Below are positions 6,699 to 64,000 of a DNA stretch of 64,000 nt, one piece after another. Origin of the DNA: Anaeroplasma sp. (GTDB lineage: Bacteria > Bacillota_I > Bacilli_A > Acholeplasmatales > Anaeroplasmataceae). The DNA lies in NCBI GenBank assembly GCA_045124155.1, contig JBGVLG010000205.1:4103-68102 (forward strand). The letters run 5' to 3'. The position numbers were made by a program, and so were the translations under genes. The first letter of the stretch is position 1; every line of letters begins with the position of its first letter. The notes beneath the pieces were generated by a model. That model worked only from the letters and a program-made list of their open reading frames with translations. It had not been told where the DNA came from and ran no database searches.

Positions 6699-6707
6699 TT
6701 TTAATCT

Positions 6708-35581: not shown

Positions 35582-35611
35582 CTGAAAAAGGCGACAAATA
35601 AATGCCACCTT
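35582..35611 (-). terminator. Terminator after the pullulanase gene
   Basis: Minus strand AAGGUGGC / GUCGCCUU (two G-U pairs) followed by UUUCAG. Short U tract. Confidence 0.55.
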
Positions 35612-35622
35612 AAATAGTTATT

Positions 35623-38283: not shown

Positions 38284-38294
38284 ATAAAAACCTC

Positions 38295-40324: not shown

Positions 40325-40384
40325 ATTTATTTTCCTTTCTTTAATAACTTGACTTTATTTTTATCAATATAATATAATAACTAT

Positions 40385-40861: not shown

Positions 40862-40865
40862 AATT

Positions 40866-40891
40866 ATAGGAGGTGTGAAAACACCTCCTAT
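40866..40891. terminator. Bidirectional terminator between convergent genes
   Basis: ATAGGAGGTGT-GAAA-ACACCTCCTAT perfect 11-bp stem, flanked by an A-rich tract on one side and a T-rich tract on the other. Confidence 0.7.
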
Positions 40892-40895
40892 TTTA

Positions 40896-42578: not shown

Positions 42579-42587
42579 ATATTAATT

Positions 42588-43487
42588 TTATCCTTTCACT
42601 GCTCCACCAGTTACACCAGATACATAGTACTTTTGTAAGCAGAAGAACAATATTGTAATTGGTAATGCAACACATACTGCACCCGGTGCAAATTGAATGT
42701 AGTATGATGTTACAGTATCCTGAGAACCTGAAACAAATTGGAATAATCCTATCGCGACAGTCCAATTGTCAATGTTCTGTAAACCAACTATATAGGATGA
42801 TGTAATGTAATCACCCCAAGGTCCCATAAAGCTTGTAAGTATAGTATAAACTATAATTGGCTTTGCAAGAGGTAAAATTATTTGCCAGAAAATTTGGCTC
42901 TTTGATGCACCATCAACCATTGCAGCCTCATCAATATTTTTAGATATTGTATCAAAGAAGCCCTTTGAAATATAATATCCACCACCTGCACCAGCTGAAT
43001 AAATAATAACTAGTGCGAAATAATTACCCTGTAGGTTAAAGATTTCCTTCATAACCCAATACATAATTATCATTCCTAGGAAGCCTGGGAACATTCCTAT
43101 AACTAGGTTAAACTTCATAAATACTGTTCTAGCCTTAAATCTAAATCTAGAAAGTGCATATGCAGTACCTAATACAAAGATTGTAGAAATAATAGTTGAT
43201 AATACAGAAACTATTAATGTATTTCCAAACCAGGTAAGGAACTTTCCATCTAATGATGTATTTGAAGCAAGAGGATTAACTTTACCAGTAATATTATTAA
43301 ATAGGTATAAATAGTTATCAAATGAGAATTCCTTTGGTATTAATTGCTGCTTTAGCTCGATTCCACCCTTTCCAAAGGATTGTAGAACTAACCAAACAAC
43401 AGGAAGAAGCCAAATAATTGACATTGCAATAAGAATAATATAAATTAGTGTATTTGAAACAATACGTCTGACTTTTAAACTTTTCAT
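42588..43487 (-). CDS. CUT1 sugar ABC transporter permease (MalG-like)
   Basis: 299 aa, 6 TM. EAA loop DEAAMVDGASKSQIFWQIILPLAKP. Confidence 0.9.
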   Translation of the reverse strand: MKSLKVRRIVSNTLIYIILIAMSIIWLLPVVWLVLQSFGKGGIELKQQLIPKEFSFDNYLYLFNNITGKVNPLASNTSLDGKFLTWFGNTLIVSVLSTIISTIFVLGTAYALSRFRFKARTVFMKFNLVIGMFPGFLGMIIMYWVMKEIFNLQGNYFALVIIYSAGAGGGYYISKGFFDTISKNIDEAAMVDGASKSQIFWQIILPLAKPIIVYTILTSFMGPWGDYITSSYIVGLQNIDNWTVAIGLFQFVSGSQDTVTSYYIQFAPGAVCVALPITILFFCLQKYYVSGVTGGAVKG

Positions 43488-46339
43488 TATTGAAATTGAT
43501 CCTCCTCTTTAATTGATCCGCTCTTACTATACATAACTATAGAAATGAATGAGCATATGATAAATACAATAATACCGATAGCACTTGCAATACCATATTG
43601 AGGATTACTTGTAGATGTTACAATCTTATAAATAAATGTAATTAATAGGTCAGTTTGTCCTAAGCCTAATAATCCAGAACCTCCAATTGAAGGACCTCCA
43701 CCAGTTAAGAAGAATATAACATTAAAGTTATTAATATTACCTATAAATTGAGTAATTAAATAAGGACCTGTAACAAATAGAATATATGGCATTGTAATCT
43801 TTGTAAATTTAGTAAATGTACCAGCACCATCTATTTCAGCAGATTCATATAAATCCTTAGGAATATTTAATAATATACCTGTAGTTGATAAGATTGTGTA
43901 TGGTATACCTACCCAAATATTAACAATAATAATTACTAATTTTGCTAAGAATACTGCTGATTCACTAGAATCTGTACCAAAGCCTAATCTACTTCCAAAG
44001 GTTTGGAAATACCATTGGCCTATTGCACCAGAATCCTTTAATAGGGTACCAATTGATAATAAAGAAATGAACTGAGGAATAGCAATTGTCATAACAAATA
44101 CTGTTCTCCATAATTTCTTAAACTTAATACCATCCTTATTAATCATTAGAGCTACAATTATACCTAAGATATAATTTGTAAATGTTGCTACTATTGCCCA
44201 GGTTAATGTCCAGCCTATTGTTTTTACTAATGCTTGTGGCAATACAGCAAATTGTGAGGTTGGATCTGGGTTAAATAGGGTCTTAAAATTATCAAAGCCT
44301 ATCCAAGTAAATAATTGTGTTGGAGGCTCGTGACCCTTAGAATAATTCGTGAAGGCAACAAATATTGAGAATATTAATGGAACAATTGAGAATAATACTA
44401 TTCCTAATACTGGTAATGATAGAATAGTAATATGGAATTTATCATTAAATAAACTCTTTATTGCTTCAACAAAGGTTGTAAATTTAACAACATATTTATC
44501 AGGATGAGCCTTAATAAACTCTTCCTTTTCATTCATAGCATGATTTAAATTTTCAGCTACTTCATTAGGAGTAAGCATTCTAGTTTCTTTTGTTTGCTTA
44601 TCCTTTATATGCATTTTCTTAACAAAGCTTACAGCTAAATTATATTCCATTTTATATTCAACAACTAATTCATCTACTACTAACTCGAAGGCTAATTCCT
44701 CTGCAGTATAATTAGTTTTTAAATATTTCTTATCTCTCTTGTAAGCTCTCTTTGATTCATTAATTTCCTCTGATTCTAATGCTTTAATATTTTTATCAGT
44801 AGGTAAATCCTTAAGCTTACGCATTATAACTGTTGTTGCATCTATTAATTGAGCCTTAGCCTCTAATAATTCGTTTTCCATATTTGGAGATTTATTAGCT
44901 TTAATAGTCTTAACATCATTATTATATTTTAATTTAGCTTGATTTAATTCCTCATTAAGTGCCTGCTTCTTTTCTCTAATTAAAGTGAATCTAGCAGTTG
45001 TAGCTTCAATCTTTTTATTCATTCCATCTAATAAATCAATTCCAGCCTGAAGATTACTTGAATTCTTTTCTTGATATTTTTCTAAACCTTCATTATAAAT
45101 AGGAACAAATTTAGAGAAATTTCTATAGAATAAAATTTCACTATCTAATTTAGCAAGCTTCTTATAATAATAATTAACCTTACCATATTTAGCATTATTA
45201 TTAGCATCCTGAATATCCACTAAAGAAGAATGTCTCTTATTTATTTCATCAATTGAATGCTTTCTTGATTTGATCTTTAATTCAATACTATTTAATAAAG
45301 ATTTTGTTTTATTCTTATAGATTTCTTGGTTAATATTATTCTTTTCTAATAATATTTCTCTATCAGCTTCTGAAGAGGTGCTTAATCTTTGATTTTGAGC
45401 TTCAACTAGTTGATTAAAGCCTGTTTCTCTAAAATTAGCTACCTTTTCATATTTATTATTTATTCTAGTAAGCTTCTTATTTTCTTTGCTTAATTTCTTT
45501 AAATAATTATAGGAATGAGTAAATGATTCATTAATTAAATAATTTGTATAATTCCTTTCCTTAGGATCTTCGATCTTATTTAAATATTCCTCTATTTCAT
45601 GAGACATTTGAGCTTTAAGCTCTTTTTTAGAAATATTTAAGGCAAAAGCTTTTTTACATTCCTCATCAATTTTTCTACTAAATTCAAGATTTCTATTATA
45701 AATAGAATCAAAATATAATAAATTCTTAGCTCTATAATTATAATATCCATTTTGAATACTACGATTCCAAATATAAATAAATAGGAATATAGATAATACC
45801 CAAAGTAGACCATAAATTAGAATCATAATAGAGTTATCACCCATTATTAGCTCAGCGAACTCTTCATCTGGATCCTCATGTGGACCCTCTAAGCCTAATG
45901 ATGATAGCATCCATATACTTTTAGCACCAAATAAAATAAATAACAAAATATATCCTATTTGAAATACTAAATACATTATACCAAAGGTATATTGCTTATT
46001 AGCTAAAGCTGAAAAGCCAAATATTCCAAAGGATAATCTACCATTTCTATCATTATATTTGAATTGATGTGCCTTACGCTTGAAAAAGCCTATGAACTTC
46101 AAGAAATATTGATATATACCAACTCCAACCATTTTTCCAAATAGTGCAATTGATATAAACATTGATAAAACAAAATCAATAACCCAACGTATACCTTTCC
46201 AAATAGTACCTGCAAAAGACATACAATAATATACAAAAGGATTTATTATATGAGGCTTTTCTGTAAATACATTTGTAGGGGATTCATTATTTATAGTTGA
46301 ATTGTTACCTAAGGTATCTTTTTCTTCCATCGCAATCAA
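43487..46339 (-). CDS. CUT1 sugar ABC transporter permease (MalF-like) with ~620-aa N-terminal extension
   Basis: 950 aa. The C-terminal ~330 aa form a canonical permease core (EAA loop ESAEIDGAGTFTKFTKITMPYIL). The N-terminus has ~4 hydrophobic helices, then ~420 aa of K/E/N-rich heptad-like sequence (about nt 44480-45740). Confidence 0.85.
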   Translation of the reverse strand: MIAMEEKDTLGNNSTINNESPTNVFTEKPHIINPFVYYCMSFAGTIWKGIRWVIDFVLSMFISIALFGKMVGVGIYQYFLKFIGFFKRKAHQFKYNDRNGRLSFGIFGFSALANKQYTFGIMYLVFQIGYILLFILFGAKSIWMLSSLGLEGPHEDPDEEFAELIMGDNSIMILIYGLLWVLSIFLFIYIWNRSIQNGYYNYRAKNLLYFDSIYNRNLEFSRKIDEECKKAFALNISKKELKAQMSHEIEEYLNKIEDPKERNYTNYLINESFTHSYNYLKKLSKENKKLTRINNKYEKVANFRETGFNQLVEAQNQRLSTSSEADREILLEKNNINQEIYKNKTKSLLNSIELKIKSRKHSIDEINKRHSSLVDIQDANNNAKYGKVNYYYKKLAKLDSEILFYRNFSKFVPIYNEGLEKYQEKNSSNLQAGIDLLDGMNKKIEATTARFTLIREKKQALNEELNQAKLKYNNDVKTIKANKSPNMENELLEAKAQLIDATTVIMRKLKDLPTDKNIKALESEEINESKRAYKRDKKYLKTNYTAEELAFELVVDELVVEYKMEYNLAVSFVKKMHIKDKQTKETRMLTPNEVAENLNHAMNEKEEFIKAHPDKYVVKFTTFVEAIKSLFNDKFHITILSLPVLGIVLFSIVPLIFSIFVAFTNYSKGHEPPTQLFTWIGFDNFKTLFNPDPTSQFAVLPQALVKTIGWTLTWAIVATFTNYILGIIVALMINKDGIKFKKLWRTVFVMTIAIPQFISLLSIGTLLKDSGAIGQWYFQTFGSRLGFGTDSSESAVFLAKLVIIIVNIWVGIPYTILSTTGILLNIPKDLYESAEIDGAGTFTKFTKITMPYILFVTGPYLITQFIGNINNFNVIFFLTGGGPSIGGSGLLGLGQTDLLITFIYKIVTSTSNPQYGIASAIGIIVFIICSFISIVMYSKSGSIKEEDQFQ

Positions 46340-46397
46340 CTCCTTTTCTTAGGGACATAAGGAGGAACTAAATTCCCCCTTATATTTCATGAATTTA

Positions 46398-47675
46398 TTA
46401 AATTTGTGGGTTTCTTAAAATATTCATTTGATCTGTTAGGAATTGTTGCCAAGTCTTTGCTGCACCAGCATCAGTTGTACCTAAATTGCCATCAACATAA
46501 GCTTGACCAATTGCCTTACCGATATCCCAGTATCTAGATTCAGCAGTTTGAGCTTGAATACATGCATATAGAGATTGTTCAACTAATGCAGCACCACCAA
46601 TAGTAACCTTTGATGTATATCTTGCATCAGCGATAGCTTCTTTATTACAAGGTAAAGCATTTCTAATTTCAAATCTCTTTAATTGACCTTCCTTTGAAGT
46701 TAATAATTCAGCTAATTCAGCAGCAGTCTTTTGTTCTGCAGCAGGTCTAGTCTTATTAATACAATAAACCTTTGAACCAGAGAATGAAGCCATTTGATAA
46801 GCAGTGCCATCGATATGATATGCAGGAAGCTTTGTAGCAGCTAAATTATCACCAATTGCAGCTTGTAAATCATTTTGCATCCAAGTACCAGATACAGCAG
46901 CGATCATTGTACCATCTTTGAAACCTGCAGCAATTACATCGTTAGAACCCATTTGTAATGTACCATCAGTATATGCAGGAGTTAATAGGCTTTGAACATA
47001 CTCAGAAACCTTAACTGCAGAAGCGTTATCCCATGTAGTGTCATAAACATTACCAGTTTCGCCCTTCTTCCACTTTAATGATTCAACACCATTAGCTTGT
47101 GGAGACATAATAAATGAGTTAGCATACCAACCATTTGCTACATCCATAAGGAATGTCTTACCAGCAGCCTTAGCCTTTTGTAAAATAGTCTCTAAAGAAG
47201 TAACATCCTCAGCAGTTAAAGCTGCCTTATTATACCATAAGAAATAACCATTATCACCTGTAACTGGATAACCCCATAGCTTATCCTCAAGTGTAGCACC
47301 TAAAACTGCAGTTTCAGTTGTAGAGTTAATAACAGCCTCTTTACGAGCGTTCTTAATTTCTGCAACGATATTCTTTGACTTTAATGTATCAATGTGGTCA
47401 TCTGCACATAAGAATAATGCAGGAGCACCATTAACTGTTGGGTCATTAGCTAGAGTAGTACCAGCATCTGCCTCAGAAATAGCAGTAAATTCATATTCGA
47501 AGTCTAATTCATGATTAGCATTATACTCATCAACAACAGCCTTAATTACTTCTTCCTCAGCAGCAGTAGCCCAAATATTGATTTTTGTTTTTTCTGTTTC
47601 TGCTTCTTTTCCACAAGAACCTAAGCCTAAAACTGCAATTGCAGCTAAAGGTAAAACCATAAATTTCTTTTTCAT
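46398..47675 (-). CDS. Maltodextrin/sugar-binding lipoprotein (MalE-like, SBP family 1)
   Basis: Start trimmed to the ATG at 47675 (MKKKFMVLPLAAIAVLGLGS-C-G lipobox). Mature protein begins KINIWATAAEEEVIKAVVDEYN. Confidence 0.85.
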   Translation of the reverse strand: MKKKFMVLPLAAIAVLGLGSCGKEAETEKTKINIWATAAEEEVIKAVVDEYNANHELDFEYEFTAISEADAGTTLANDPTVNGAPALFLCADDHIDTLKSKNIVAEIKNARKEAVINSTTETAVLGATLEDKLWGYPVTGDNGYFLWYNKAALTAEDVTSLETILQKAKAAGKTFLMDVANGWYANSFIMSPQANGVESLKWKKGETGNVYDTTWDNASAVKVSEYVQSLLTPAYTDGTLQMGSNDVIAAGFKDGTMIAAVSGTWMQNDLQAAIGDNLAATKLPAYHIDGTAYQMASFSGSKVYCINKTRPAAEQKTAAELAELLTSKEGQLKRFEIRNALPCNKEAIADARYTSKVTIGGAALVEQSLYACIQAQTAESRYWDIGKAIGQAYVDGNLGTTDAGAAKTWQQFLTDQMNILRNPQI

Positions 47676-47707
47676 TTTATCTTTTCCTCTCAATCATTTA
47701 AATATTT

Positions 47708-55371: not shown

Positions 55372-55414
55372 CAATTAAAAAAGAAAAGAAAAGCATATCA
55401 AAAAATATGCTTTT
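55372..55414 (-). terminator. Terminator downstream of the ADH remnant, upstream of tilS
   Basis: Minus strand AAAAGCAUAU / AUAUGCUUUU 10-bp stem followed by a CUUUUCUUUUUU tail. Confidence 0.65.
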
Positions 55415-55478
55415 CCATAATTTTACATTTTTTCCCACAGTTTATTATGTATTTATTTCATAATAAATCTAACTATTT

Positions 55479-55794
55479 TTTAATATAATTTACTCCCTTC
55501 ATATACGATATTTGAGGTTGGATTAGGCACTGCTTAACTATATAAAGAATAATTTAATTTATTTTTATCTAAAGAATCTGATAAATAATTTAGTAATCCT
55601 GCATTAATTATTCCTTTACCAGTAACTATTAAGAGATTATTTTTCTTATTAGATTTTAATACTTTTACAATATCTTCTATTTTAGAAATTATTTCTGAAT
55701 TTCTATAAGGTAATAATGGAATTACAAGATTAAATACTATTTGAAAACATCTTGAATATATTTTATAAAATAGATTTATAAAATTATTCCTCAT
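55479..55794 (-). pseudogene. Decayed iron-containing alcohol dehydrogenase gene (N-terminal ~100 codons only)
   Basis: The 86-aa ORF ...NNLLIVTGKGIINAGLLNYLSDSLDKNKLNYSLYS matches an Fe-ADH N-terminus. It ends in TAA (55534-55536) and continues in frame as AVPNPTSNIVY (the PNPT motif). Then come a TGA, a 1-nt shift, EGSKLY and TAA at 55479. The remaining ~300 codons are absent. Confidence 0.65.
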
Positions 55795-56257
55795 ATTTCT
55801 TTTTATACTCTTCGAGATTTTTTACAATAATATCTAAAGATTTATATAATATTTTAGCTTCATTTTCTAGAATACCATTACTACATATTCTAAATATATC
55901 ATAGCACTTTTTTGTAACTATTTTAGCAAGATCTTTACCCTCTTCAGTAAGAACGATTACTGTTTTATATCTTTTTTTATCATCATTAGATAAAAACTCT
56001 ACTAACATACGTTCTTCTAATATTTTAAGATTTCTAGAGATTGAGGCTTTATCCTCACAACATAGATTTACTAGATCTTTTGAGGTTAAATTTTCATAAT
56101 TATATAGGTAATATAAACAGGCTACTGATATACTATTTAAATCATAGTCTTTCATTTCATTTGATTTTATTTGAAATATCATTCTACTTATTTTAATTAT
56201 TGCCCCTGTAAATTCTTTAAATCTATCCATTTTCATCACCGTTAAATATATTACCAT
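55784..56257 (-). CDS. MarR-family transcriptional regulator
   Basis: 157 aa. wHTH ...LTSKDLVNLCCEDKASISRNLKILEERMLVE. The real start may be the ATG at 56230 (MDRFKEF), which follows GGTGA. The 3' end overlaps the ADH remnant by 11 nt. Confidence 0.85.
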   Translation of the reverse strand: MVIYLTVMKMDRFKEFTGAIIKISRMIFQIKSNEMKDYDLNSISVACLYYLYNYENLTSKDLVNLCCEDKASISRNLKILEERMLVEFLSNDDKKRYKTVIVLTEEGKDLAKIVTKKCYDIFRICSNGILENEAKILYKSLDIIVKNLEEYKKKYEE

Positions 56258-56263
56258 TAACTT

Positions 56264-56277
56264 GTTGAAATTTCAAC
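56264..56277. promoter_or_regulatory. Perfect 14-bp palindrome GTTGAAATTTCAAC, candidate MarR operator
   Basis: Lies 7 nt upstream of the longest MarR ORF start, between the upstream terminator and the gene. Confidence 0.45.
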
Positions 56278-56287
56278 TATTTTTTGT

Positions 56288-56319
56288 GAAAAAGAAAGGA
56301 CATGGATAATACCATGTCC
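56288..56319 (-). terminator. Terminator ending the nuclease/ABC operon
   Basis: Minus strand GGACAUGG-UAUUAU-CCAUGUCC followed by UUUCUUUUU. Confidence 0.7.
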
Positions 56320-56404
56320 AATCAAGAAGTTTGAGAAAATCAATTTAGATTTAATGATTATCTAAGATGATTTCATAAAATTTTATCAAATTATAATGAA
56401 ATAA

Positions 56405-59071
56405 TTATTCAGCATTAGCTGGAGTTAATTCATAAGTGATTGATAATTCAGTGAATCTAACTTGAGCAGTATTTGATAATTCTAAAGATGTATCATTGAT
56501 TTCATATACACCATTAGTACCAGTTACAGTAGTAGTACCAGCCTTAACAACTAAGTTTTCTAATGAATATTTTCCAGTACCTGCAGATGATTTACAAGAG
56601 ATACTCTTTATAGTACCTGAAACACCACTCTTAAATGAAATTGTTATAGTATCACCACTATAAAATTTAAATAAATCCGTTGAAAAATTTGAAATATTAC
56701 TATCTTTAGCATTAACATCAGTATAAACCAAATCAAATACATTACTATCTAAACCAAATAAACTATAATTTGATGTATTATTACCACTATCTAAATTCTT
56801 TGTACCTGATGTAGGAAATACTAAACTTGTAGTTACGACACTAGAATTTTTAGCAGTTACAGTAATTGTAGTCTCATTAGATACATAAGCTGTACCAGAA
56901 GCAACAACAATCTTAAATGTTTGACTTAATGCTGTTTCAACTTGAGGAGCAGTAACAGTGATCTTGCCATCAGCATAAGTGATGATGGCAGTTTCAGCTG
57001 TATCAACTGTAACAGTTAAAGTTAAATCATAAGGATTTTCTAATGTAACCTCAGTATTAGCAGTAAACTCATTTTCAAATTGAGCCTTAATTGCATTAAG
57101 AGTCTCATTTACTTTTTCTTCTGGAGTTAATTCCTTTTGTACTGGTTGTTCAAATACATAGAATTGTGAATTAGTATTATAAAGTGCTGAAGCACCTACA
57201 ACTGTATAAGTTTTTCCTACCTCAAGAGCTAATGTTATACCCTGTGAATATAAAGCTATTGAAGTTTCACCAACTAATATAGTCTTAGCTGCAGTAGCAA
57301 CACCTGTGAACTTAACAACTTGATTTTGTGTTTCTTTAGTAACTGTTGCATAATTTGTAATTGTAGAAGTAATATCCTTCATTTCAGGTTTTGTAATTGC
57401 ATCAGCACCTGTTACTTCTTCTACTTCATATTTTGTTATTTCATATAATGAATTATAAATAGATAATACACCATTAAGAGTATATGTCTTTCCTACTTCG
57501 AATGAAGATGCATCGCCATATGCTAAGTATCCGTTGCCTTCAGCATCAACTAAATAAGTATAGTAAAGAGTATCTGATTTCTTACCAATATATACTACAA
57601 CACCCTTAACAAATACTGAAGCTCCATTGTCAGAAGCTACATATTGTGCGAATGTCATAGGATCAAATGAATTCTTTACTTGAACCTCATCAAATGTAAT
57701 AGTAACAGGAGCTACACCTTCTTTTGTAGCTGTAGCTACTAAAGTAAACTTTTGTAAAGAATCAGTTGGAGTGATAGTTAATGCACCTTCAGAAATTGTA
57801 GCACCAGTTGAACCTTCAGCAAGTGCGTAAGTAATTGCAAAATCCTCATATCCTTCTAGTGTAGCAGGAAGAGTCACTGTTGTTTCTTCAGTATACTTTT
57901 CATTTAAAGCTACTTCTGATTTTAAAGCAGAATCAATATATTGTACTTTTTCAGAATCAGTAAATGGTACAATTGCTAAAACATTTCCTCTTAACTTACC
58001 TTTTGAGCTAGTAGAATTCATGTAGAATAATACTCTAATTACACTTCCCTCTTTACCCTTTAATAAAGACGCATAATTTTTAGTTTCACTTGAAATTGAA
58101 CCAGAGAAATATTCATTAAATGATACTTTTGAAGTTTCGTAATTTACATCCTCAATTGCATATGTACCATAATCATTTACATATACTAATACAGTCATTT
58201 CATATACATTACCTACTGCAGCAGTACCTAATGCATTAACTTCAACAATGGTCTTATCTTTTACTGCTGCAGAGAAATCTGCATCCTTTTTCTCAGATAT
58301 AACCTGTAAATCTTTTGGTGATTTAATTTGTTTAGCAGAATTATATACTGAAACCTCTCCAGTAAAATAAACTTCATTACCAACCTCTACTGTTGCGGCA
58401 GTTGTAGAACCATATACATAAATAGTACCAGTTGAATCTGTTAAATAGAAGCCAGCTCTATATTCTGCATCAGTTGTACCAGATGCATATAAGAAGCCTG
58501 TAACAACTCCATATGCTTCAACTGCTGTACCAGCAGCTAAAGCCTTAATTTCTGCAACAGTAGTAGAATGATTTTCTAATGCTTTAACAGTGACCTTAAA
58601 ATCCTTTGCTAATGAATAATCATCTAAAATAGCTGTTGCAGTAATTGTAACCTCTACATCTTGGCTACCAAATGTAGGCTGAGTTACTGTTAATACTCCT
58701 CCATTTACTGTAATTACATCAGCATTACTAGAAGTATACACTAATGACACACCACCAATACCAGTAGTAGCTAAAGTAATACTTGCAGTATTAATCTCTG
58801 ATTGAATAGATAATTGATCTAATGCTGCTTGCATTACCTCTTTTGCTTCTTCAGCAGGATCTACTGTTGAAGGAGTAGTTGTTGGAGCACTTGGAGTACT
58901 AGTAGGTGCACTAGTAGGTGTACTAGTTGGAGTGCTTGGTGTAGTAGTTGCTGTTTGAGTTTGACTTGGAGTTGATGGAGTACTTGTTGGTTCTTCTGTA
59001 GTTCCACAAGATGCTAAGCCAATAACAGCACCTAAAGAAATTAAACTAATTAATAAATTTTTCTTTTTCAT
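56405..59071 (-). CDS. Large surface lipoprotein with Thr/Pro linker, Ig-like module and at least three OB-fold-like modules (putative nucleic-acid binding)
   Basis: 888 aa. Lipobox VIGLAS-C-GTT, then a ~45-aa TP-rich linker. Repeated pattern V.(V/F).G.V......(F)Y(L/V).D..G.....(Y)......(V/E)VG..Y...G....YN...Q(I/F) occurs at about aa 168-250, 470-555 and 575-650. No catalytic motif seen. Confidence 0.7.
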   Translation of the reverse strand: MKKKNLLISLISLGAVIGLASCGTTEEPTSTPSTPSQTQTATTTPSTPTSTPTSAPTSTPSAPTTTPSTVDPAEEAKEVMQAALDQLSIQSEINTASITLATTGIGGVSLVYTSSNADVITVNGGVLTVTQPTFGSQDVEVTITATAILDDYSLAKDFKVTVKALENHSTTVAEIKALAAGTAVEAYGVVTGFLYASGTTDAEYRAGFYLTDSTGTIYVYGSTTAATVEVGNEVYFTGEVSVYNSAKQIKSPKDLQVISEKKDADFSAAVKDKTIVEVNALGTAAVGNVYEMTVLVYVNDYGTYAIEDVNYETSKVSFNEYFSGSISSETKNYASLLKGKEGSVIRVLFYMNSTSSKGKLRGNVLAIVPFTDSEKVQYIDSALKSEVALNEKYTEETTVTLPATLEGYEDFAITYALAEGSTGATISEGALTITPTDSLQKFTLVATATKEGVAPVTITFDEVQVKNSFDPMTFAQYVASDNGASVFVKGVVVYIGKKSDTLYYTYLVDAEGNGYLAYGDASSFEVGKTYTLNGVLSIYNSLYEITKYEVEEVTGADAITKPEMKDITSTITNYATVTKETQNQVVKFTGVATAAKTILVGETSIALYSQGITLALEVGKTYTVVGASALYNTNSQFYVFEQPVQKELTPEEKVNETLNAIKAQFENEFTANTEVTLENPYDLTLTVTVDTAETAIITYADGKITVTAPQVETALSQTFKIVVASGTAYVSNETTITVTAKNSSVVTTSLVFPTSGTKNLDSGNNTSNYSLFGLDSNVFDLVYTDVNAKDSNISNFSTDLFKFYSGDTITISFKSGVSGTIKSISCKSSAGTGKYSLENLVVKAGTTTVTGTNGVYEINDTSLELSNTAQVRFTELSITYELTPANAE
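58866..58995 (-). repeat. Imperfect short tandem repeats encoding the TSTP/TSAP linker
   Basis: Plus-strand units ACTAGTAGGTGC / ACTAGTAGGTGT / ACTAGTTGGAGT etc. encode PSTPTSTPTSAPTSTPSAPTTTPST. Confidence 0.6.
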
Positions 59072-59125
59072 CTTTTTTTCCTTTCTTTTTTTTATGAATA
59101 AAGCATATTATGCTTGATTCCAATA

Positions 59126-60880
59126 TTAAATTGCTTTAATTTCGTCAACAATTGTACCATTAAGGTTTCTATTGCCAACTAAAATTTGATAGCTTGGATA
59201 TGCAAATGGAACTGTATAATCTTCATTTGCAAAAATACTTAATATACCAGTAACCTTATATTTTTTACCAGTTGTAAAAGAACTCTTGTCATATGATGGA
59301 GCTAAGGCACCATTAACACGTACCTGAAGACAATCAGGACTATAACTCATTGTTACTTCTTCTAAATTAGCTTTCACATCACTTGATAAGTTTGCATATT
59401 CTGTACTTGAATAAAACTCAAGTTCTTTTGTGGTATTATTAACATATGCTAATTTGAAATCCTTCATAGCATTTGAATCAGTTAATGAATAATTGTTATT
59501 TTTATCATATGAGCCAATTGAGCCTAAATTTAAGGTATAGGTTACTAATTTACCTAAATGGCTCTTAATTTCTGTAAATGACATACCATCAATATTAATT
59601 GGGGTTGGCATAGGTACAACTTCATTTGGATCTGTTACAAGTGAGAATGTAGATGTTTTAAATACAACATCTGACATTTGATATTGGCCACCATATTCAC
59701 ATAAACGACCACGAATTCTAATTGTATCACCAACATTGTAAACATCAGAAATTGAATTACCATTAATACCCATATAAATATATAATGGAGTACCTTGTTT
59801 ATCCTCAATATAGAAATTGCTTCCTATATATCTAGTAATAACTCCTGTTAATTCTACATAAGTACCACGAGTCATTAAGGTATCAATTTGTTTAATTGCT
59901 TCAGTAATAGATAACTTAGTAGGATTCTTTGAATAATCATAATTTGGATCTGTTTCACCTTGAACACGTAAATCAGTTCCAGTTTTTGCCATACGATTTC
60001 CAGCTTCAAAGAATAATTCACTTAATAATAATGAACCATATCTTTTTGTTGTTTCACCTGATATTGAATCAGTTACAGTATCATATCTACCATATAATAA
60101 TGGTTCAGTAGATTTTTTAGCATAATATCCATATCTTGAAGTCTTAAAGAAGACACTTTCAGTATAGCATTCTTCTATCATATCTAATTGATATGAACGA
60201 TAATTACTTAAATTTTCAGGATCTTGTCCTTGTGGACAATACCAAACAAGAGCTAACCAACGAGTACCATTTGAATCTAGTCTTGTTGAATAATTTCTTT
60301 CAGCATCATTATCTGTTCTAATATCTAAGGCATCAACAATAATACCTTCAGCATTTTTTAATAAGCTCTTACAATAATTAGATGCAGCCTTACCCCATGG
60401 ATCAATTGATGAAGTAGATTCTGGTGTATCAATACCAGTAAAACGAATAGTAACATATTCATATGATTTACCCGCTACTGTATAAGTATCTCTTTCACCA
60501 TTATTTAAATAAAACACTGCTGTATCGCCATCTGTAACGGATTTTAATTCCATTTTAGCAATACCATCTGCAATAAAATTACCACTTAGTTTACCATTAC
60601 TATCCTTACCAATTGTAGGATTTAAAACTCCAAGATTTAACTTATTTGAAAAATAATGATCATATGGAGTTTCCTTATCAGCAGGAACATCATAATATGA
60701 TGCACCTGGATTAACTACAGGAGCAGTTGTTGTAGGATGAGTGTTTATACTAGTAGTAGATGTTGGAATACTAGTTCCACTAGTTGATAAATCTACTGAA
60801 GGAGCTTCATTATTACATGATGCCAGAGTAAATCCACATAATATTGCTAAAGATATAATTCCTAATTTTACTTTTTTCAT
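59126..60880 (-). CDS. Staphylococcal-nuclease (SNase/thermonuclease) lipoprotein with C-terminal OB-fold modules
   Basis: 584 aa. Lipobox GFTLAS-C-NNE. SNase catalytic pattern VTDGDTAVF...VTIRFTGIDTPES...SNGTRWLALVW (Ca ligands, Arg and Glu equivalents present). OB-like GTYVELTGVITRYIGSNFYIEDKQGTPLYIY...VGDTIRIRGRLCEYGGQYQM. Confidence 0.85.
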   Translation of the reverse strand: MKKVKLGIISLAILCGFTLASCNNEAPSVDLSTSGTSIPTSTTSINTHPTTTAPVVNPGASYYDVPADKETPYDHYFSNKLNLGVLNPTIGKDSNGKLSGNFIADGIAKMELKSVTDGDTAVFYLNNGERDTYTVAGKSYEYVTIRFTGIDTPESTSSIDPWGKAASNYCKSLLKNAEGIIVDALDIRTDNDAERNYSTRLDSNGTRWLALVWYCPQGQDPENLSNYRSYQLDMIEECYTESVFFKTSRYGYYAKKSTEPLLYGRYDTVTDSISGETTKRYGSLLLSELFFEAGNRMAKTGTDLRVQGETDPNYDYSKNPTKLSITEAIKQIDTLMTRGTYVELTGVITRYIGSNFYIEDKQGTPLYIYMGINGNSISDVYNVGDTIRIRGRLCEYGGQYQMSDVVFKTSTFSLVTDPNEVVPMPTPINIDGMSFTEIKSHLGKLVTYTLNLGSIGSYDKNNNYSLTDSNAMKDFKLAYVNNTTKELEFYSSTEYANLSSDVKANLEEVTMSYSPDCLQVRVNGALAPSYDKSSFTTGKKYKVTGILSIFANEDYTVPFAYPSYQILVGNRNLNGTIVDEIKAI

Positions 60881-60892
60881 ATAATCACAATC

Positions 60893-62497
60893 CTAGTTCA
60901 TATTCTTTTCTAACTTAATTCTTGATTTAGCTAGTTCATTATAGAATGCAGTCATTGCTTGATCAAATGTCTTATTATATAAATACATATCGTTTACACA
61001 AGTTTCTAGATTATCACGAACAACAGATGAACCATTAAATGCTGGATCTGTATAATAATAATCAATTTCTGCAATTGCGGAATTAATACCCTTTGAAACT
61101 GCTGAATTTTGTAAATAGAACATCTTATCATCAGCATTTGTTAATTTTGATAAATCCCAGCTTGCACAATCTAATAATCTCTTGAAATCAGCTGATTCTC
61201 TTGCTGAATTACGAACAGGTAAATAACCAGTTGAAGTTGAAAAGAATACTTGATTTTCAGCATTTGATAAATATTTAGTTAATAACCAAGCTGCCATCAT
61301 TTGATAATTATCTGATGCCTTACTTAATATCGCAAGATTAGTACCTTGTTGAATAACTGCTTGAGTATCTGTAGCACCATAACCCTTTTGCGGTACTGTA
61401 GTAGTTTTTAATTCATAATTCTTAGAATCATTATTCTTAACACCTGCAGTAGAACCAATTGAAATAAAGGCTTTTCTTACTGCCATATATGAAGAACCAT
61501 ATGAACCTGTACCACCTGCTTGAGGGAATTGGAATAAATTATTCTTAGCTTGATTTAAGAAATATGTTTGAGCCTCATAATTTGATTTATTATATGCAGT
61601 AACTACACCAACACCATTAGAATTAATCATAGTGTATTTACCAGTACCACCCCATTGACGAGATGTTGTAATAAAGAAATTTGATTGGCTATCTACATAT
61701 ACTGGATATTTCATATCAGAATCTACATTATATGTACCGCCATTATGAGTATAAGAAATAGTAGATTTATTGCTAACAATATATTGACTTACCTCAAATA
61801 ATTGTTCCCAAGTAGGATTATCCCATGTACCTTTTTCTGATAACCAGCCCTTTGACTCTAAAATTGGATCAACTACATTTGAATTATAATACATAATTTC
61901 AGTTGATTTATTAAAAGGGATACCAGCAACAGAAGTTTTTCCTTCAATAAGCATTTGAGTTTCTTCCCAATATGATTTAACAAAATCATTTGAAGTTGTA
62001 GTAACATCTTCTAATGCTATATCAGGGTTAGTATTATATACATATGAATCTAATGGTAATAATAAATTTTGTTTAATATAATCAGCAAAATGGTCTGGAT
62101 AACCTAATACAAGTGTAGGAATAGAACCACTATCTGCACCTAGGTTAACAGCACTACGAAGCCCATCATAGCCTCCGCCCTTATTAACGATATTGACATC
62201 AATATTGAAGCCCTTATCAGTCATTTCAGATTCAAAATTTTCAACAAGCTCAATTAGTGGGGCAGATACTGCATCACCAAATGAATGCCAAAAATCAAAT
62301 TTAACTGTTTTACCATTCTTTAATTCATTATAAACACTTGTTAAGTTTTCATCCTCTATAGGAGTAATTGTAGTTTGACTGTTTTGATTTGATGTAGCTG
62401 AAGAGTCTGAACTACCATTTGAAACCTGTCCACATGATGCAAGTGTAACACCTAAAGCCATTGTCATGGCTGTTGTGAAGAATATCTTCTTTTTCAT
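60893..62497 (-). CDS. ABC transporter substrate-binding lipoprotein (SBP family 1, CUT1-like), ligand unknown
   Basis: 534 aa. Lipobox GVTLAS-C-GQV. Mature part has VKFDFWHSFGD and a typical two-lobe SBP pattern. Roughly 100 aa longer than usual sugar SBPs. Confidence 0.8.
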   Translation of the reverse strand: MKKKIFFTTAMTMALGVTLASCGQVSNGSSDSSATSNQNSQTTITPIEDENLTSVYNELKNGKTVKFDFWHSFGDAVSAPLIELVENFESEMTDKGFNIDVNIVNKGGGYDGLRSAVNLGADSGSIPTLVLGYPDHFADYIKQNLLLPLDSYVYNTNPDIALEDVTTTSNDFVKSYWEETQMLIEGKTSVAGIPFNKSTEIMYYNSNVVDPILESKGWLSEKGTWDNPTWEQLFEVSQYIVSNKSTISYTHNGGTYNVDSDMKYPVYVDSQSNFFITTSRQWGGTGKYTMINSNGVGVVTAYNKSNYEAQTYFLNQAKNNLFQFPQAGGTGSYGSSYMAVRKAFISIGSTAGVKNNDSKNYELKTTTVPQKGYGATDTQAVIQQGTNLAILSKASDNYQMMAAWLLTKYLSNAENQVFFSTSTGYLPVRNSARESADFKRLLDCASWDLSKLTNADDKMFYLQNSAVSKGINSAIAEIDYYYTDPAFNGSSVVRDNLETCVNDMYLYNKTFDQAMTAFYNELAKSRIKLEKNMN

Positions 62498-62512
62498 TTT
62501 ATTTCTCCTTTT

Positions 62513-63400
62513 TTATCCTTTTATACCAGAACGAGATACACCGTTCATAATATACTTCCTAAATACGATAAACGCAATTAATAATGGTAATGAAACAAGT
62601 AGCATACCAGCCATTACGTAGTTTGTATTTACTAAACCTGAATCATTTCTAAACATTTCCATTATACCATTTGTAACAAGATTCATTTCCTTTCTACTTG
62701 TTACTGTACGAGGCCAAATATAAGCATTCCAGCTACCAATCATTGAAAGAATGGTAATTGTAATAATATTTGGTCTAGCAATAGGGATCATAACCTTCCA
62801 TAAATAACCAAAGTCAGTTACACCATCTACTTTAGCAGCATAATATAATTCATTAGGAATTTGTCTGAAATTTTGTCTTAAGAAGAAGGTATAAAATACA
62901 CTAGTAATAAATGGTACTATTAACGCTGTATAAGTATCTAGCCAACCAAAATTAGCTACAGTAGTAAAGTTTGTAATAATCATCATTTCACCAGGAATCA
63001 TCATTGTAGCTAGTAATATTGAGAATATTAATTCTTTACCTCTAAATTGTAATCTAGCAAAAGCAAACGCTGCAAGAACTGTAATAATTACAGTTAATAT
63101 TGTTGAAACCGTACCTACTAATAAGGTATTTCCCATATAACGCCAAATCATAGAATATTTTTCATCTGTAAAAAATATACTTAAATTAAATGTCCATTCC
63201 TTTGGAAATAGTCCTTGTGCTACTGTAGTATCTTGAATTTCAGCAGTTGATTTAAATGCTGAGAAAATCATCCACATAAATGGAATTAATGTAAATAATG
63301 CAAAGAAAGTTAATACTAAATATAGAATAATATCTTTAATTAATTTTGCTGCTTTATATCTTCTTTCTTCACTTACACTATTAAAATATCTTTCTTCCAT
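62513..63400 (-). CDS. CUT1 ABC transporter permease (UgpE/MalG-like)
   Basis: EAA loop YYAAKVDGVTDFGYLWKVMIPIARP. Start trimmed to the ATG at 63400 (MEERYF...), 6 nt after GGAGG. The upstream GTG extension overlaps the previous gene. Confidence 0.9.
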   Translation of the reverse strand: MEERYFNSVSEERRYKAAKLIKDIILYLVLTFFALFTLIPFMWMIFSAFKSTAEIQDTTVAQGLFPKEWTFNLSIFFTDEKYSMIWRYMGNTLLVGTVSTILTVIITVLAAFAFARLQFRGKELIFSILLATMMIPGEMMIITNFTTVANFGWLDTYTALIVPFITSVFYTFFLRQNFRQIPNELYYAAKVDGVTDFGYLWKVMIPIARPNIITITILSMIGSWNAYIWPRTVTSRKEMNLVTNGIMEMFRNDSGLVNTNYVMAGMLLVSLPLLIAFIVFRKYIMNGVSRSGIKG

Positions 63401-63410
63401 TGGGCACCTC

Positions 63411-64000
63411 CTAGTAATGAACACGTTTCTTATTATATAGCATTTGGAATCCAGTCACTATCATAATAAGTATGAATAATACTACTGCAGATGCAGAAGA
63501 TACAGGAAGTAATTGCCATTGAGAAGCACCAGTAACCTGATTGAAGCTATTATAAATATATCCGACAGCAGTCATGAATTGTGAATCACTACCACTACCC
63601 ATTGTATCACCATAAATAGCTACAATAGATGAATATGCTTTAAAGGCACCAATTAATGATGTAATTGTTATATATAAAACCATTGGTGATAATAATGGTA
63701 GAGTAATTTTTCTAAATACTCTCCATTTAGAAGCACCATCTAGCTGAGCAGCTTGATAATATTGCTTATCTATACCTTGAATACCACCAACAAATACCAA
63801 AATCTTAAATGCTAGTCCATTCCAAATTGTATAAGTAATAATAACAATCGCACCAGCCCACATTGCAACTGTTTTATCAGTTAAACCTTCAATAGGAATA
63901 TCTCCTATCCAGTTAATTGCTGCATTAAACATTCCATTTATTAAACCATTCCAAGAGAAAATTGAAGCAAATACCATACCAAAGGCAATACCATTAGTAA
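63411..64000 (-). CDS. CUT1 ABC transporter permease (UgpA/MalF-like), C-terminal ~195 codons (5' end beyond right edge)
   Basis: EAA loop YQAAQLDGASKWRVFRKITLPLLSP. The reading frame stays open from the track ATG (63977) to the window edge (...TNGIAFGMVF...). Confidence 0.85.
   Translation of the reverse strand, partial: TNGIAFGMVFASIFSWNGLINGMFNAAINWIGDIPIEGLTDKTVAMWAGAIVIITYTIWNGLAFKILVFVGGIQGIDKQYYQAAQLDGASKWRVFRKITLPLLSPMVLYITITSLIGAFKAYSSIVAIYGDTMGSGSDSQFMTAVGYIYNSFNQVTGASQWQLLPVSSASAVVLFILIMIVTGFQMLYNKKRVHY

Follow-up and report, generated by a model that had tools for sequence, protein, structure and literature searches.

The locus described here raises the question of why, in an uncultured gut Anaeroplasma, genes for a surface nuclease and a large non-catalytic lipoprotein lie directly behind those for a CUT1 ABC importer. 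A first-pass annotation of the window (the whole 64,000-nucleotide stretch of DNA analysed) read these genes as a system for the capture, digestion and uptake of extracellular nucleic acids. Computational analysis supports this functional reading well, with every in silico test that the annotation proposed coming out in its favor, and we put at about 65% the probability that the operon draws on extracellular DNA and RNA for nutrition.

Five minus-strand open reading frames fill the end of the window, and their coordinates, which give intergenic gaps of 10, 15, 12 and 54 nucleotides, are as first annotated. Permease 1 (63411-64000; BPD_transp_1, E 6e-15) is UgpA/MalF-like and is represented by its C-terminal ~196 amino acids, its start lying beyond the window end. 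The UgpE/MalG-like permease 2 (62513-63400, 295 amino acids; BPD_transp_1, E 1.5e-16; UgpE model, E 2e-30) begins with an ATG at 63400 that is preceded by an AGGAGG ribosome-binding site. Then come a substrate-binding lipoprotein (SBP; 60893-62497), an SNase-type nuclease lipoprotein (59126-60880) and an 888-amino-acid multi-OB lipoprotein (56405-59071). This order stands, but the operon runs on past the window end. On an identical contig (L001), where permease 1 is complete (3127-4113, 328 amino acids), the full order is a ComEC-type MBL lipoprotein, a UgpC-like ATPase, permease 1, permease 2, SBP, SNase-OB lipoprotein and multi-OB lipoprotein, with gaps of at most 54 nucleotides across all seven genes. 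The locus is thus most likely a conserved seven-gene operon of ~10.9 kb, of which the window holds the distal part.

Co-transcription of these genes is the arrangement that we infer. An intrinsic-terminator-like hairpin (56298-56319; 8 base pairs, five of them GC) with its T run spans 56288-56319 on the minus strand, 86 nucleotides 3′ of the OB gene stop, and likely marks the end of the operon. It is the sole such minus-strand site within 55400-64000, and no terminator was found between operon genes in this interval; all that the gap between the SNase and OB genes holds is a weak hairpin of A/T pairs (-7.6 kcal/mol), which lacks a U tract. Since a sigma-70-like site whose -10 element is extended lies ~80 nucleotides upstream of the OB gene, this gene may also be transcribed separately; promoter-like sites are no more common here than in shuffled sequence and so carry no weight for or against.

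All four exported proteins of the operon (MBL, SBP, SNase and OB) carry lipoboxes, which in the latter three is the same L-A-S-C sequence ending at Cys22. Among relatives, lipoboxes are present in 26/26 SNase, 24/24 OB, 24/26 SBP and 13/18 MBL proteins, and the MBL proteins that lack one look like cases of near-variant boxes or mis-called starts.

The nuclease (584 amino acids) consists of a linker, a conserved N-terminal stretch, the SNase catalytic domain (amino acids ~100-250; 60131-60583, minus strand), one OB module and a C-terminal domain. Its PF00565 score (19.5 bits, E 1.4e-3) falls under the Pfam gathering score of 21 bits; the NucI model matches at E 1e-6, and profile matches in the PDB are exclusively to staphylococcal nuclease. 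The catalytic pattern noted originally proved to be invariant among 28 relatives (D117/D119/T120, R146, D151-T152-P153-E154 and R207-W208). We take D119, R146, D151, T152, E154 and R207 to be the counterparts of S. aureus D21, R35, D40, T41, E43 and R87, by a pairwise mapping onto nuclease A in which R207 was matched to R87 through its motif. The OB module (amino acids 335-413; 59642-59878, minus strand) is recognized by our module HMM (E 6e-26), shows weak matches to PF01336 and to ExeM/NucH N-termini, and, taken as amino acids 330-420, aligns with modules D1 and D3 of the downstream protein at an hhalign probability of 96-97%.

What could this downstream protein contribute? Profile searches of its 888 residues returned no catalytic-family match, and the earlier description of repeated OB modules behind a Thr/Pro linker holds, although it missed three aBig_2 Ig domains (E 2e-12), domain D2 (amino acids 270-370) and a C-terminal beta-sandwich. 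The AF2 model (pLDDT 83.6) places the parts in the order lipobox, linker, [helix-Ig-OB-D2], [helix-Ig-OB-OB], helix-Ig and beta-sandwich. A disordered tether rich in Thr, Pro and Ser (amino acids 23-68; 58868-59005, minus strand; S+T+P+N fraction 0.67) follows the lipidated Cys22, and residues 1-68 have pLDDT values below 50. Module D1 (amino acids 169-261, or 168-262 as aligned by hhalign; 58289-58567; module HMM E 4e-34), with strands beta1-3, a helix and beta4-5, resembles D3 (amino acids 470-556; 57404-57664; E 6e-22) at 96% hhalign probability, and D3 resembles the more divergent D4 (amino acids 566-642; 57146-57376; E only 3e-2) at 90%; all three are on the minus strand.

PF01336 matches 13 of the 22 OB modules. 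Their top-ranking PDB profiles belong to RPA2, STN1 and an extracellular EEP nuclease, the last by its N-terminus; Foldseek returns HIN, POT1, CST and BRCA2. The possibility that the repeated modules are carbohydrate-binding modules was set aside, given that these three kinds of match are to OB folds. Whole-chain Foldseek matches of the protein are mostly Ig/CBM-rich surface proteins. Oligosaccharides or proteins are also possible ligands of OB folds, and D2 and the beta-sandwich could bind some other ligand. Across 28 loci, the module HMM finds this OB module nowhere but in the SNase, with one copy (two in L032), and in whatever protein or proteins follow it, with 1-11 copies. Bacillus subtilis YhcR and extracellular nucleases of the ExeM/NucH type are likewise surface enzymes with OB (tRNA_anti-codon-type) modules beside a catalytic domain, and LTD domains, which ExeM has, also occur in remote relatives of the OB protein. 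Unlike the Anaeroplasma proteins, these enzymes stand alone, are LPXTG- or membrane-anchored and are not known to have a co-encoded ABC importer, whereas here the OB array resides mostly on a separate, non-catalytic protein.

Since the importer subunits have UgpC, UgpA and UgpE as their best NCBIfam models, the operon might instead encode a Ugp-like importer of glycerophosphodiesters, glycerol phosphate or another non-nucleotide phosphodiester, beside which the nucleases and OB protein are merely co-located and have a role of their own, for example in remodelling eDNA or biofilms, in evading DNA traps set by the host or in releasing phosphate. The SBP (534 amino acids, minus strand; SBP_bac_8, E 4e-25; AF2 pLDDT 88.8) bears on this point. 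With its model as query, the best 25 Foldseek matches are all to the UpG-binding protein of Thermus thermophilus (7C0x; E ~1e-25, TMt 0.83), reportedly the dinucleotide-binding protein of an ABC transporter (7C0F series) described by Chandravanshi et al. in FEBS J in 2021. The next group follows at E 1e-19. PDB sequence-profile matches are to this protein, to UgpB-family proteins and, weakly, to two others. The 7C0F series is the best neighbor of the SBP in both structure and sequence, and both proteins belong to CUT1; identity is ~20%, and the SBP exceeds the Thermus protein by ~100 residues and has a lipid anchor. Shared features are the Tyr/Ser/Ser/Tyr phosphate ligands plus, in Thermus numbering, Y224, Q274 and the aromatic F79, while Y246 is replaced by Asn and N81 by Asp in the close family of the SBP.

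In 30 SNase-linked SBPs, the phosphate tetrad (Y110, S198, S349/T350 and Y425) is kept together with Y133, Y333 and Q384, and six of eight mutagenised ligand residues are conserved. This set is absent from a maltodextrin-type SBP encoded elsewhere in the window, which served as a sugar-type comparison. Sequence and model together support a predicted pocket of phosphodiester/dinucleotide type rather than sugar type, and we propose that the SBP belongs to the UgpB/dinucleotide-binding-protein subclade of CUT1 and binds short phosphodiester products. The supporting information of PMC12718374 names 7C0F as the dinucleotide-binding protein, and the literature consulted on this protein links it to no nuclease. 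Because UgpB proteins of M. tuberculosis and E. coli form the second group of relatives, the ligand could be another phosphodiester, and the tetrad is common to UgpB and the SBP. However, Foldseek favors the dinucleotide-binding protein by about six orders of magnitude, and Y133, Y333 and Q384 are extra ligand residues shared with it.

The genomic neighborhood also makes a Ugp-like importer unlikely. The core of ATPase, two permeases, SBP, SNase and OB protein is found in 24/24 species-level genome loci (two of them cut by contig ends) and in four distant loci, 28 in total, so the adjacency suspected at the outset persists even where SNase identity is only 28-31%. No locus map contains a glycerophosphodiesterase (GlpQ/UgpQ), and the neighbors are nucleotide-salvage enzymes: NrnA-like genes lie beside the cluster in five loci (L009, L016, L028, L031 and L032), a uridine kinase adjoins it in six, and further nucleases are often close by. 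Other genes at relatives' loci include a CysQ-like gene, Endonuclease_1, a second SNase and a Na/Pi cotransporter.

The same neighbors bear on the species transported. If polymers were degraded completely outside the cell, nucleosides or 3′/5′-NMPs might be imported rather than di- or oligonucleotides. SNase enzymes yield 3′-NMPs as well as dinucleotides, the adjacent uridine kinases would suit such salvage, and papers on mycoplasmas use the term "nucleotide precursors". Against this, the operon encodes no surface phosphatase or 5′-nucleotidase, known nucleoside ABC importers are of the different BmpA/NupABC family, and bare nucleosides fit the SBP less well because its phosphate-binding tetrad is conserved. 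NrnA-like nanoRNases moreover fit imported short oligonucleotides, and we regard import of nucleosides or mononucleotides as improbable. It overlaps with nutrient harvesting otherwise, differing only in what is transported.

The MBL lipoprotein introduces one further alternative, a competence-like device in which DNA would be processed by OB domains together with a ComEC-type nuclease so that long single strands are imported for recombination. Its best matches are to ComEC (TIGR00361, E 3e-11; PDB 9vc6, E 2e-5), whose C-terminal nuclease domain is the most similar to the MBL domain, and its HxHxDH motif is kept in 18/18 family members. ComEC itself joins an OB fold to a channel and an MBL nuclease domain, as PMC5031224 and PMC8579336 describe, and this extracellular OB plus MBL logic is common to the operon. 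Yet the TIGR00361 score is 42 bits against an equivalog cut-off of 190 bits, the domain search gave only Lactamase_B and no ComEC channel (competence) domain, the N-terminal ~280 amino acids are unrelated to ComEC, and the OB folds reside on other proteins. The membrane components are those of a type I ABC importer, a closed SBP pocket fits small ligands, and transforming DNA would be destroyed by the SNase. We consider DNA uptake for recombination highly unlikely.

For nutrient harvesting, we envisage that the four lipoproteins would be held on the wall-less cell surface by flexible Ser/Thr/Pro tethers, and that the 888-amino-acid protein would capture nucleic-acid polymers through its OB folds, three to four in number and set apart by Ig domains. 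The SNase, with its own OB module, and the MBL lipoprotein could then cut the polymer to mono-, di- and short oligonucleotides, phosphodiester products that would be bound by the SBP and imported through the two permeases and UgpC/MalK-like ATPase. In related genomes, cytoplasmic NrnA-like nanoRNases, CysQ-like 3′-phosphatases and uridine kinase encoded beside the cluster may complete conversion to the nucleotide pool.

The concept of capture, digestion and import is not new. Mycoplasmas possess SNase-ABC "nucleotide transporter" operons in which these genes are co-transcribed: M. agalactiae MAG_5030(P80)-MAG_5040(SNase)-MAG_5050/5060/5070, M. bovis MBOVPG45_0311(P81)-0310-0309/0307, M. hominis MHO_0720-0760, M. 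hyopneumoniae mhp379, M. pneumoniae MPN133-136 and M. gallisepticum MslA with MGA_0676 (PMC3585158, PMC4045577, PMC5533444, PMC9740415). MslA binds DNA, single-stranded as well as double-stranded, and the same model has been published for these operons, which include an SBP-like lipoprotein (P80/P81/MslA) (PMC4045577, PMC3585158). The originally claimed novelty was thus overstated: the dedicated OB partner stands, but an own binding protein is not new. Both systems, that of mycoplasmas by published description, combine a surface SNase lipoprotein, co-oriented with an ATPase, two sugar/Ugp-like permeases and an SBP-fold lipoprotein, in the order lipoprotein-SNase-ATPase-permeases in mycoplasmas versus MBL-ATPase-permeases-SBP-SNase-OB in Anaeroplasma. 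Loci induced by DNA or RNA, in organisms that grow on DNA, likewise combine a thermonuclease or extracellular nucleases with ABC transporters, NrnA and phosphate transporters (PMC8397711, PMC10470597); these are known at the level of annotation, and an OB partner, a ComEC-like lipoprotein or the SBP class is not reported there.

Anaeroplasma differs from mycoplasmas in that a multi-OB protein of its own is the proposed polymer binder, the nuclease contains an OB module and the operon has an additional MBL lipoprotein of ComEC type. The host, moreover, belongs to a gut commensal lineage and, as the first-pass annotation stated, makes purines de novo (purLCFMNHD, 124-10403), so that the nuclease-importer system is not obligatory. 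The Anaeroplasma operon is an enlarged version of the system proposed for mycoplasmas, to which it adds an OB partner, a ComEC-like nuclease and a probable dinucleotide-type pocket.

Five co-oriented open reading frames (ORFs) occupy the minus strand at the end of the window, exactly where the first-pass annotation had placed them. These encode a permease (permease 1) that ends at 63411 and runs off the window, a second permease (permease 2; 62513-63400, with an ATG start, although a GTG farther upstream, at 63424, is open as well), a 534-aa binding lipoprotein (SBP; 60893-62497), a 584-aa nuclease lipoprotein (SNase; 59126-60880), and an 888-aa lipoprotein that we call the OB protein (56405-59071). 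The gaps between them are 10, 15, 12 and 54 nt, as had been claimed. Permease 2 and SBP have ribosome-binding sites of the AGGAGG/AGGAG type, and those of SNase and the OB protein are weaker, of the GGA type. A minus-strand scan of 55400-64000 identified a sole terminator-like site, composed of a hairpin at 56298-56319 and a subsequent run of T residues, which resides 86 nt past the last stop codon. None was found between the operon genes, and the 54-nt gap between the SNase and OB protein genes has no U tract and forms nothing beyond a weak A/T hairpin (-7.6 kcal/mol). Scans for promoter-like hexamer pairs were uninformative because the counts equal the expectation from shuffled sequence (54 versus 58 expected, and 15 versus 15.5 in a second scan). 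One sigma-70-like site (TTGGCA, 16 nt, TACAAT, with a TG extended -10) at 59151-59178 on the minus strand, within the 3′ end of the SNase gene and approximately 80 nt upstream of the OB protein gene, may be an internal promoter, bearing in mind that promoter-like matches overall are at the level of chance.

The operon extends beyond the window. An identical SNase protein sequence is present on three Logan metagenome contigs, and the 14.9-kb Logan contig L001, whose proteins are 100% identical to those of the window wherever they are shared, carries the upstream cluster genes. These code for a 587-aa MBL lipoprotein (L001 254-2017) and a 364-aa ATPase (L001 2033-3127), both outside the window, and for the complete 328-aa first permease (L001 3127-4113). 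With these three upstream genes visible on L001, the unit comprises seven genes and spans about 10.9 kb. Four of the products are lipoproteins, with signal peptides ending in a lipobox of the pattern [LVI][ASTG][GAS]C (LASC in three, LTGC in one) that is kept across loci.

Several elements flank this unit. A MarR-family regulator gene (55784-56257, minus strand) directly follows the operon terminator. In the nearest genome record (locus L004, 14528-14815), an uncultured Anaeroplasma sp. MAG of 98% identity, only 95 aa of it remain, and other species lack it at this place. We excluded it from the cluster because it is not conserved with the other genes. Overlapping its end is an 86-aa ORF (55534-55794, minus strand) whose similarity to iron-containing alcohol dehydrogenase (E 1.4e-3) covers no more than the first ~57 positions of the latter; it probably is a gene remnant. 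The hpt gene, 2.4 kb downstream, was given no weight because it belongs to the usual tilS-hpt-ftsH group. On the far side of the operon, some 180 nt before its first gene, L001 carries the 3′ terminus of a group II intron (L001 4-77; RF00029, 32 bits versus a gathering score of 40). L004 lacks it at the corresponding place, which suggests an insertion that varies between strains. An exact 17-nt direct repeat, CCAACCATATATTTTAA, is present in two copies 35-36 nt apart (L001 83-99 and 118-134; L004 3323-3339 and 3359-3375), just upstream of a promoter-like site preceding the MBL gene. This repeat, which is found in this species alone among the 32 fetched loci, is a candidate operator.

The association of these genes is conserved well beyond a single genome. 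By scanning a genome collection with an alignment of the SNase family, we recovered 24 distinct species-level loci, and these were compared by ORF calling, BLASTP against the seven operon proteins, and clustering of all ORFs. Relatives other than the nearest genome are gut and rumen MAGs labelled Anaeroplasmataceae, Acholeplasmatales, ‘uncultured Bacilli’ or Mollicutes. The order ATPase-permease 1-permease 2-SBP-SNase-OB protein is kept in 24 of 24 loci, two of which are cut at a contig end. Four more distant SNase relatives (28-31% identity; L028, L030, L031, L032) reside in the same core order, ATPase-permease-permease-SBP-SNase, followed by a large aBig_2/OB/LTD protein. The MBL lipoprotein is encoded by 16 of 24 loci (17 of 26 clustered loci when L001 is counted), and its gene comes first in the Anaeroplasma clade and last in the ‘Bacilli’ clade, whose OB protein is short (320-350 aa). 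Because sampling started from SNase, what can properly be said is that members of this SNase family invariably occur in an ABC/SBP/OB context. In 12 loci (L012, L014, L015, L017, L019-L025, L028), one to three genes for RDD-family membrane proteins precede the ATPase gene. In the 11 of these loci that belong to the ‘Bacilli’ clade, which does not include L028, they are joined by a conserved ORF of 111-125 aa without any Pfam match.

The nuclease itself scores under curated thresholds, both for PF00565 (19.5 bits versus a cut-off of 21) and for the NCBIfam NucI model (E 1e-6; 28 versus 250 bits). However, we classify it as a divergent member of PF00565 rather than a non-member, because its relatives at 28-31% identity do match this family and because a 28-sequence family profile matches staphylococcal nuclease entries exclusively among PDB structures. 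The catalytic pattern noted in the first-pass annotation could be mapped residue by residue. In a pairwise alignment with S. aureus nuclease A, residues D19, D21, T22, R35, D40, T41 and E43 correspond to D117, D119, T120, R146, D151, T152 and E154, and R207 was placed at R87 by motif (RLDSNGTRW versus RTDKYGRG). The Ca2+ ligands (D21, D40, T41) and the catalytic residues (R35, E43, R87) are thereby all represented, and the mapped residues, including R207, are invariant in the 28 sequences. Given this invariance, the active site is intact in the divergent domain, and the protein is predicted to be catalytically active. Farther along the chain, aa 335-413 form an OB module, whereas aa 425-584 showed no relation to the other domains compared by profile-profile alignment (hhalign).

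This same module recurs in the OB protein, for which Pfam reports only one aBig_2 Ig domain. An AlphaFold2 model built from 29 homologues (mean pLDDT 83.6) begins with a disordered segment that includes the signal peptide and a TP linker (aa 1-68), followed by three blocks that each start with a helix and an Ig domain. The first block continues with a beta-barrel (172-260) and a second domain (275-368), the second with two beta-barrels (474-553 and 572-639), and the third with a C-terminal beta-sandwich (745-885). Self-BLAST detected no repeats, and profile comparison was needed to reveal them. By hhalign, domain D1 (168-262) is related to D3 (470-556) at 96% and D3 to D4 (566-642) at 90%, such that the module is present at least three times, as originally proposed, and both D1 and D3 are related to SNase 330-420 at 96-97%. 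The three Ig domains are likewise mutually related (50-97%), and no relation to the other domains was found for D2 or the C-terminal domain.

We conclude that the repeated module is an OB fold and not a carbohydrate-binding module. In the AlphaFold2 model, aa 172-260 and 474-553 follow the order expected of an OB fold, with three strands, a helix and two further strands making up a five-stranded beta-barrel. Among PDB structures, the module profile picks out RPA2 (E 1e-3), STN1 and an extracellular EEP nuclease at its N-terminus. PF01336 matches 13 of 22 module sequences, all under the gathering score (best E 1.7e-5). Among the 29 full-length homologues, 9 match PF01336 and a few match phage gene V or RMI2. 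The top ranks of a whole-chain Foldseek search are Ig/CBM-rich surface proteins, with a TM of about 0.1. The informative matches are local, to the OB domains of HIN, POT1, CST and BRCA2 (probability about 1). These modules are predicted to bind ss or ds nucleic acid. Also as proposed, the protein seems to be non-catalytic, in that no catalytic family was matched in searches that included Pfam and NCBIfam. For its C-terminal beta-sandwich (aa 745-885), neither the PDB nor Pfam gave a significant match, and this domain might conceivably bind a ligand other than nucleic acid.

Across loci, the OB protein ranges from 319 to 995 aa. The module HMM matches once per SNase (twice in L032), 1-11 times per downstream protein, and nowhere else in the loci. 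The highest number occurs in a Eubacteriales MAG (L027, 11147-18430), where the gene after SNase encodes a 2427-aa protein that is an extreme expansion of this ‘antenna’ protein. A profile search with the OB protein alignment returned 6360 representatives at E values up to 1e-3, but only about 15 match over the full length, and this count is no measure of the family because most matches come from aBig_2 repeats.

A second putative nuclease is encoded by the MBL gene. Its product carries an LTGC lipobox, a Ser/Thr/Asn-rich linker, and a Lactamase_B domain (E 7e-9) whose best relatives are ComEC nuclease domains (TIGR00361, E 3e-11, far under the equivalog cut-off; PDB 9vc6, E 2e-5). The HxHxDH motif is intact (HGHQDH at aa 329) and is present in 18 of 18 relatives. 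This kinship might suggest that the operon specifies a competence-like device. However, the polytopic competence (channel) domain was not found in the protein, which has Lactamase_B and a single lipoprotein signal peptide alone. It is therefore a free-standing ComEC-type MBL lipoprotein and not a true ComEC/Rec2 protein, and we judge a competence-like role to be highly improbable. The narrower claim that the surface proteins of this cluster act on nucleic acids is very probable, more so than the full reading given below.

The two BPD_transp_1 permeases, a UgpC/MalK-like ATPase (UgpC model, E 1e-104, on L001) and the SBP, all in one operon, have the composition of a CUT1 ABC importer (TC 3.A.1.1), which is defined by MalFG/UgpAE-type permeases, a MalK/UgpC-type ATPase and an SBP_bac_1/8 binding protein. 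The SBP family profile best matches the 7C0x series of PDB entries (E about 1e-18), which represent the Thermus thermophilus dinucleotide-binding protein, followed by UgpB from M. tuberculosis (2e-16) and from E. coli and a marine organism (about 1e-7). Weak matches were also observed to a cycloisomaltooligosaccharide-binding protein (9xf5, N-terminal stretch only) and to a MalE homologue (3e-4). By fold, for an AlphaFold2 model with pLDDT 88.8, the top 25 Foldseek matches are all the Thermus protein (E about 1e-25, target TM 0.83), in entries that hold bound uridylyl-3′-5′-phospho-guanosine, and UgpB, GacH and MalE-type proteins follow from about 1e-19.

The binding pocket is more telling. 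UgpB, a GPC binder and the UpG binder 7C0F have in common two Tyr and two Ser residues that hold phosphate (Y64, S143, S266 and Y342 in UgpB), a set that glucose-binding proteins lack (PMC12718374). Mapped through a HMMER alignment to 7C0F, this tetrad corresponds to Y110, S198, S349/T350 and Y425 of the SBP and is kept in 30 of 30 SNase-linked SBPs. The window provides an internal negative control in a second CUT1-type system (~35600-47700, minus strand), which includes a 950-aa BPD_transp_1 ORF (43487-46339) and a 431-aa SBP-like ORF (46398-47693) and adjoins pullulanase and alpha-amylase genes (35623-38283 and 40896-42578). We aligned this second SBP by MAFFT with the 30 SNase-linked SBPs and a partial 7C0F sequence rebuilt from the profile alignment. 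The signature is essentially invariant in the SNase-linked proteins, even at 25-33% identity, whereas in the sugar-type SBP the signature columns read gap, A, D, T, gap, S, G, N, D, S, A and the tetrad positions read -, T, S/G, A. This difference is our strongest argument that the SBP ligand carries a phosphodiester and is probably nucleotide-like, in a protein with ~20% identity to the reference, ~100 extra residues and two differing contacts.

The eight residues mutated by the depositors of the Thermus structures (Y56, F79, N81, S127, Y224, T240, Y246, Q274) align with Y110, Y133, D135, S198, Y333, S349, N355/356 and Q384. Six of the eight are identical or conservative (Y110, Y133, S198, Y333, S349, Q384). 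In the close family, N81 is replaced by Asp and Y246 by Asn, although Y246 stays Tyr in the four distant loci. These contacts are suggestive of a dinucleotide-like ligand but are no proof of it. The stretch from aa ~210 to 330, where one would look for the UgpB-specific Trp clamp that grips the glycerol moiety, lies between two aligned blocks and does not itself align to 7C0F or UgpB. A Ugp-like phosphodiester importer that merely neighbours unrelated nucleases would share the tetrad and the UgpC-like ATPase, but the 7C0x entries rank ahead of UgpB and the SNase family is invariably found beside this transporter; we regard such an importer as unlikely.

Genes adjoining the operon in relatives may indicate the fate of the products. 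NrnA-like DHH/DHHA1 proteins are encoded at L009, L016, L028, L031 and L032 (E 1e-64 to 1e-77, under the NrnA model cut-off), a CysQ-like 3′,5′-bisphosphate nucleotidase at L028, and uridine kinase, above cut-off, at six loci. Endonuclease_1, a second SNase and a Na/Pi cotransporter are further recurrent neighbours. Enzymes of the SNase type yield 3′-phosphorylated mono- and dinucleotides. We also considered import of mononucleotides or nucleosides only, which overlaps our main reading and to which the uridine kinase genes would be suited; with NrnA-like genes and the phosphate-binding tetrad also present, we consider this restricted version improbable.

Our preferred reading, to which we assign a probability of roughly 0.65, is that these parts constitute one nucleic-acid harvesting system. 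Gene order, domains, conserved residues and synteny are established directly, and the steps of the mechanism are proposed. At the membrane surface, the multi-OB lipoprotein would capture DNA or RNA from outside the cell, both the SNase-OB lipoprotein and the ComEC-type MBL lipoprotein would cut the captured polymer, the SBP would bind short phosphodiester products, the CUT1 importer would take these in, and enzymes of the NrnA, CysQ and Udk types would complete salvage. This is, in essence, the function proposed in the first-pass annotation, and every computational test available supports it. As that annotation also stated, the organism retains de novo purine synthesis, given that a complete-looking operon, purL-purC-purF-purM-purN-purH-purD (124-10403, minus strand), is defined by seven strong Pfam assignments. 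Because of these genes, the system would supply phosphorus, carbon, nitrogen or an economical source of nucleotides rather than meet an absolute requirement.

Related arrangements have been described in mycoplasmas. In M. agalactiae, the SNase MAG_5040 is transcribed with MAG_5030 (P80), an ATPase and two permeases; P80 was modelled as a type II solute-binding protein, and the nuclease was proposed to feed the transporter with P80 as its binding protein (PMC3585158). The M. bovis genes MBOVPG45_0307-0311 were termed a ‘putative nucleotide transporter operon’ in a paper which also states that MslA binds ss and dsDNA and may pass oligonucleotides to the nuclease for ABC import (PMC4045577), and M. 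hominis MHO_0720-0760 are co-regulated (PMC5533444). This capture-digest-import model is repeated in reviews (PMC9740415, PMC12115388). Furthermore, free-living wall-less bacteria grow on DNA, and their loci combine thermonuclease or extracellular RNase, NrnA and ABC transporters (PMC8397711, PMC10470597). Like the operon described here, the P80/MslA systems join an SNase and SBP-fold lipoproteins with an ATPase and two permeases in co-oriented genes with short gaps, but by their published descriptions the gene order differs (PMC3585158, PMC5533444). A match of the SBP to NCBIfam NF045826 (‘P68 family lipoprotein’) is not evidence of mycoplasma orthology, because its score is far under the cut-off (46 versus 200 bits) and P68 is mhp390, which is not the mhp379 neighbour.

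Since the mycoplasma model was already published, the dedicated binding protein and non-catalytic polymer-binding partner are not new as concepts, contrary to the first-pass annotation. As far as the literature we examined shows, four aspects are new: a separate family of multi-OB lipoproteins with a module in common with the nuclease, a free-standing ComEC-type MBL lipoprotein within the same operon, an SBP that classifies beside the one dinucleotide-binding SBP known so far and keeps its phosphate- and base-contact residues, and the broad retention of the module among commensal gut lineages. A search on ABC uptake of oligonucleotides or dinucleotides found nothing bacterial among the papers listed.

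What the SNase-linked ABC transporters of Mollicutes carry has been a matter of debate since about 2007, with no settled answer. Given the match of the SBP to the one dinucleotide-binding SBP whose structure is known, and because nanoRNase genes adjoin the operon in relatives, the cluster gives a testable candidate answer, namely short phosphodiester fragments such as dinucleotides, and turns an old question into a direct ligand-binding experiment. More tentatively, the transporter might be a dedicated importer of intact dinucleotides and short oligonucleotides, and the cluster a ‘nucleic-acid utilisation locus’ that follows the logic of polysaccharide utilisation loci, with OB-based capture, two tethered nucleases, the SBP and cytoplasmic NrnA, that is widespread in gut wall-less and RF39-like Bacilli. 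If true, this would by extension name the substrate of the mycoplasma transporters. The module is not peculiar to pathogenic mycoplasmas. With two parts beyond the systems described there, the multi-OB ‘antenna’ lipoprotein of 1 to 11 modules and the free-standing ComEC-type nuclease lipoprotein, it is conserved in commensal gut Anaeroplasmataceae and related uncultured Bacilli, whose habitat holds abundant dietary and microbial DNA and RNA.
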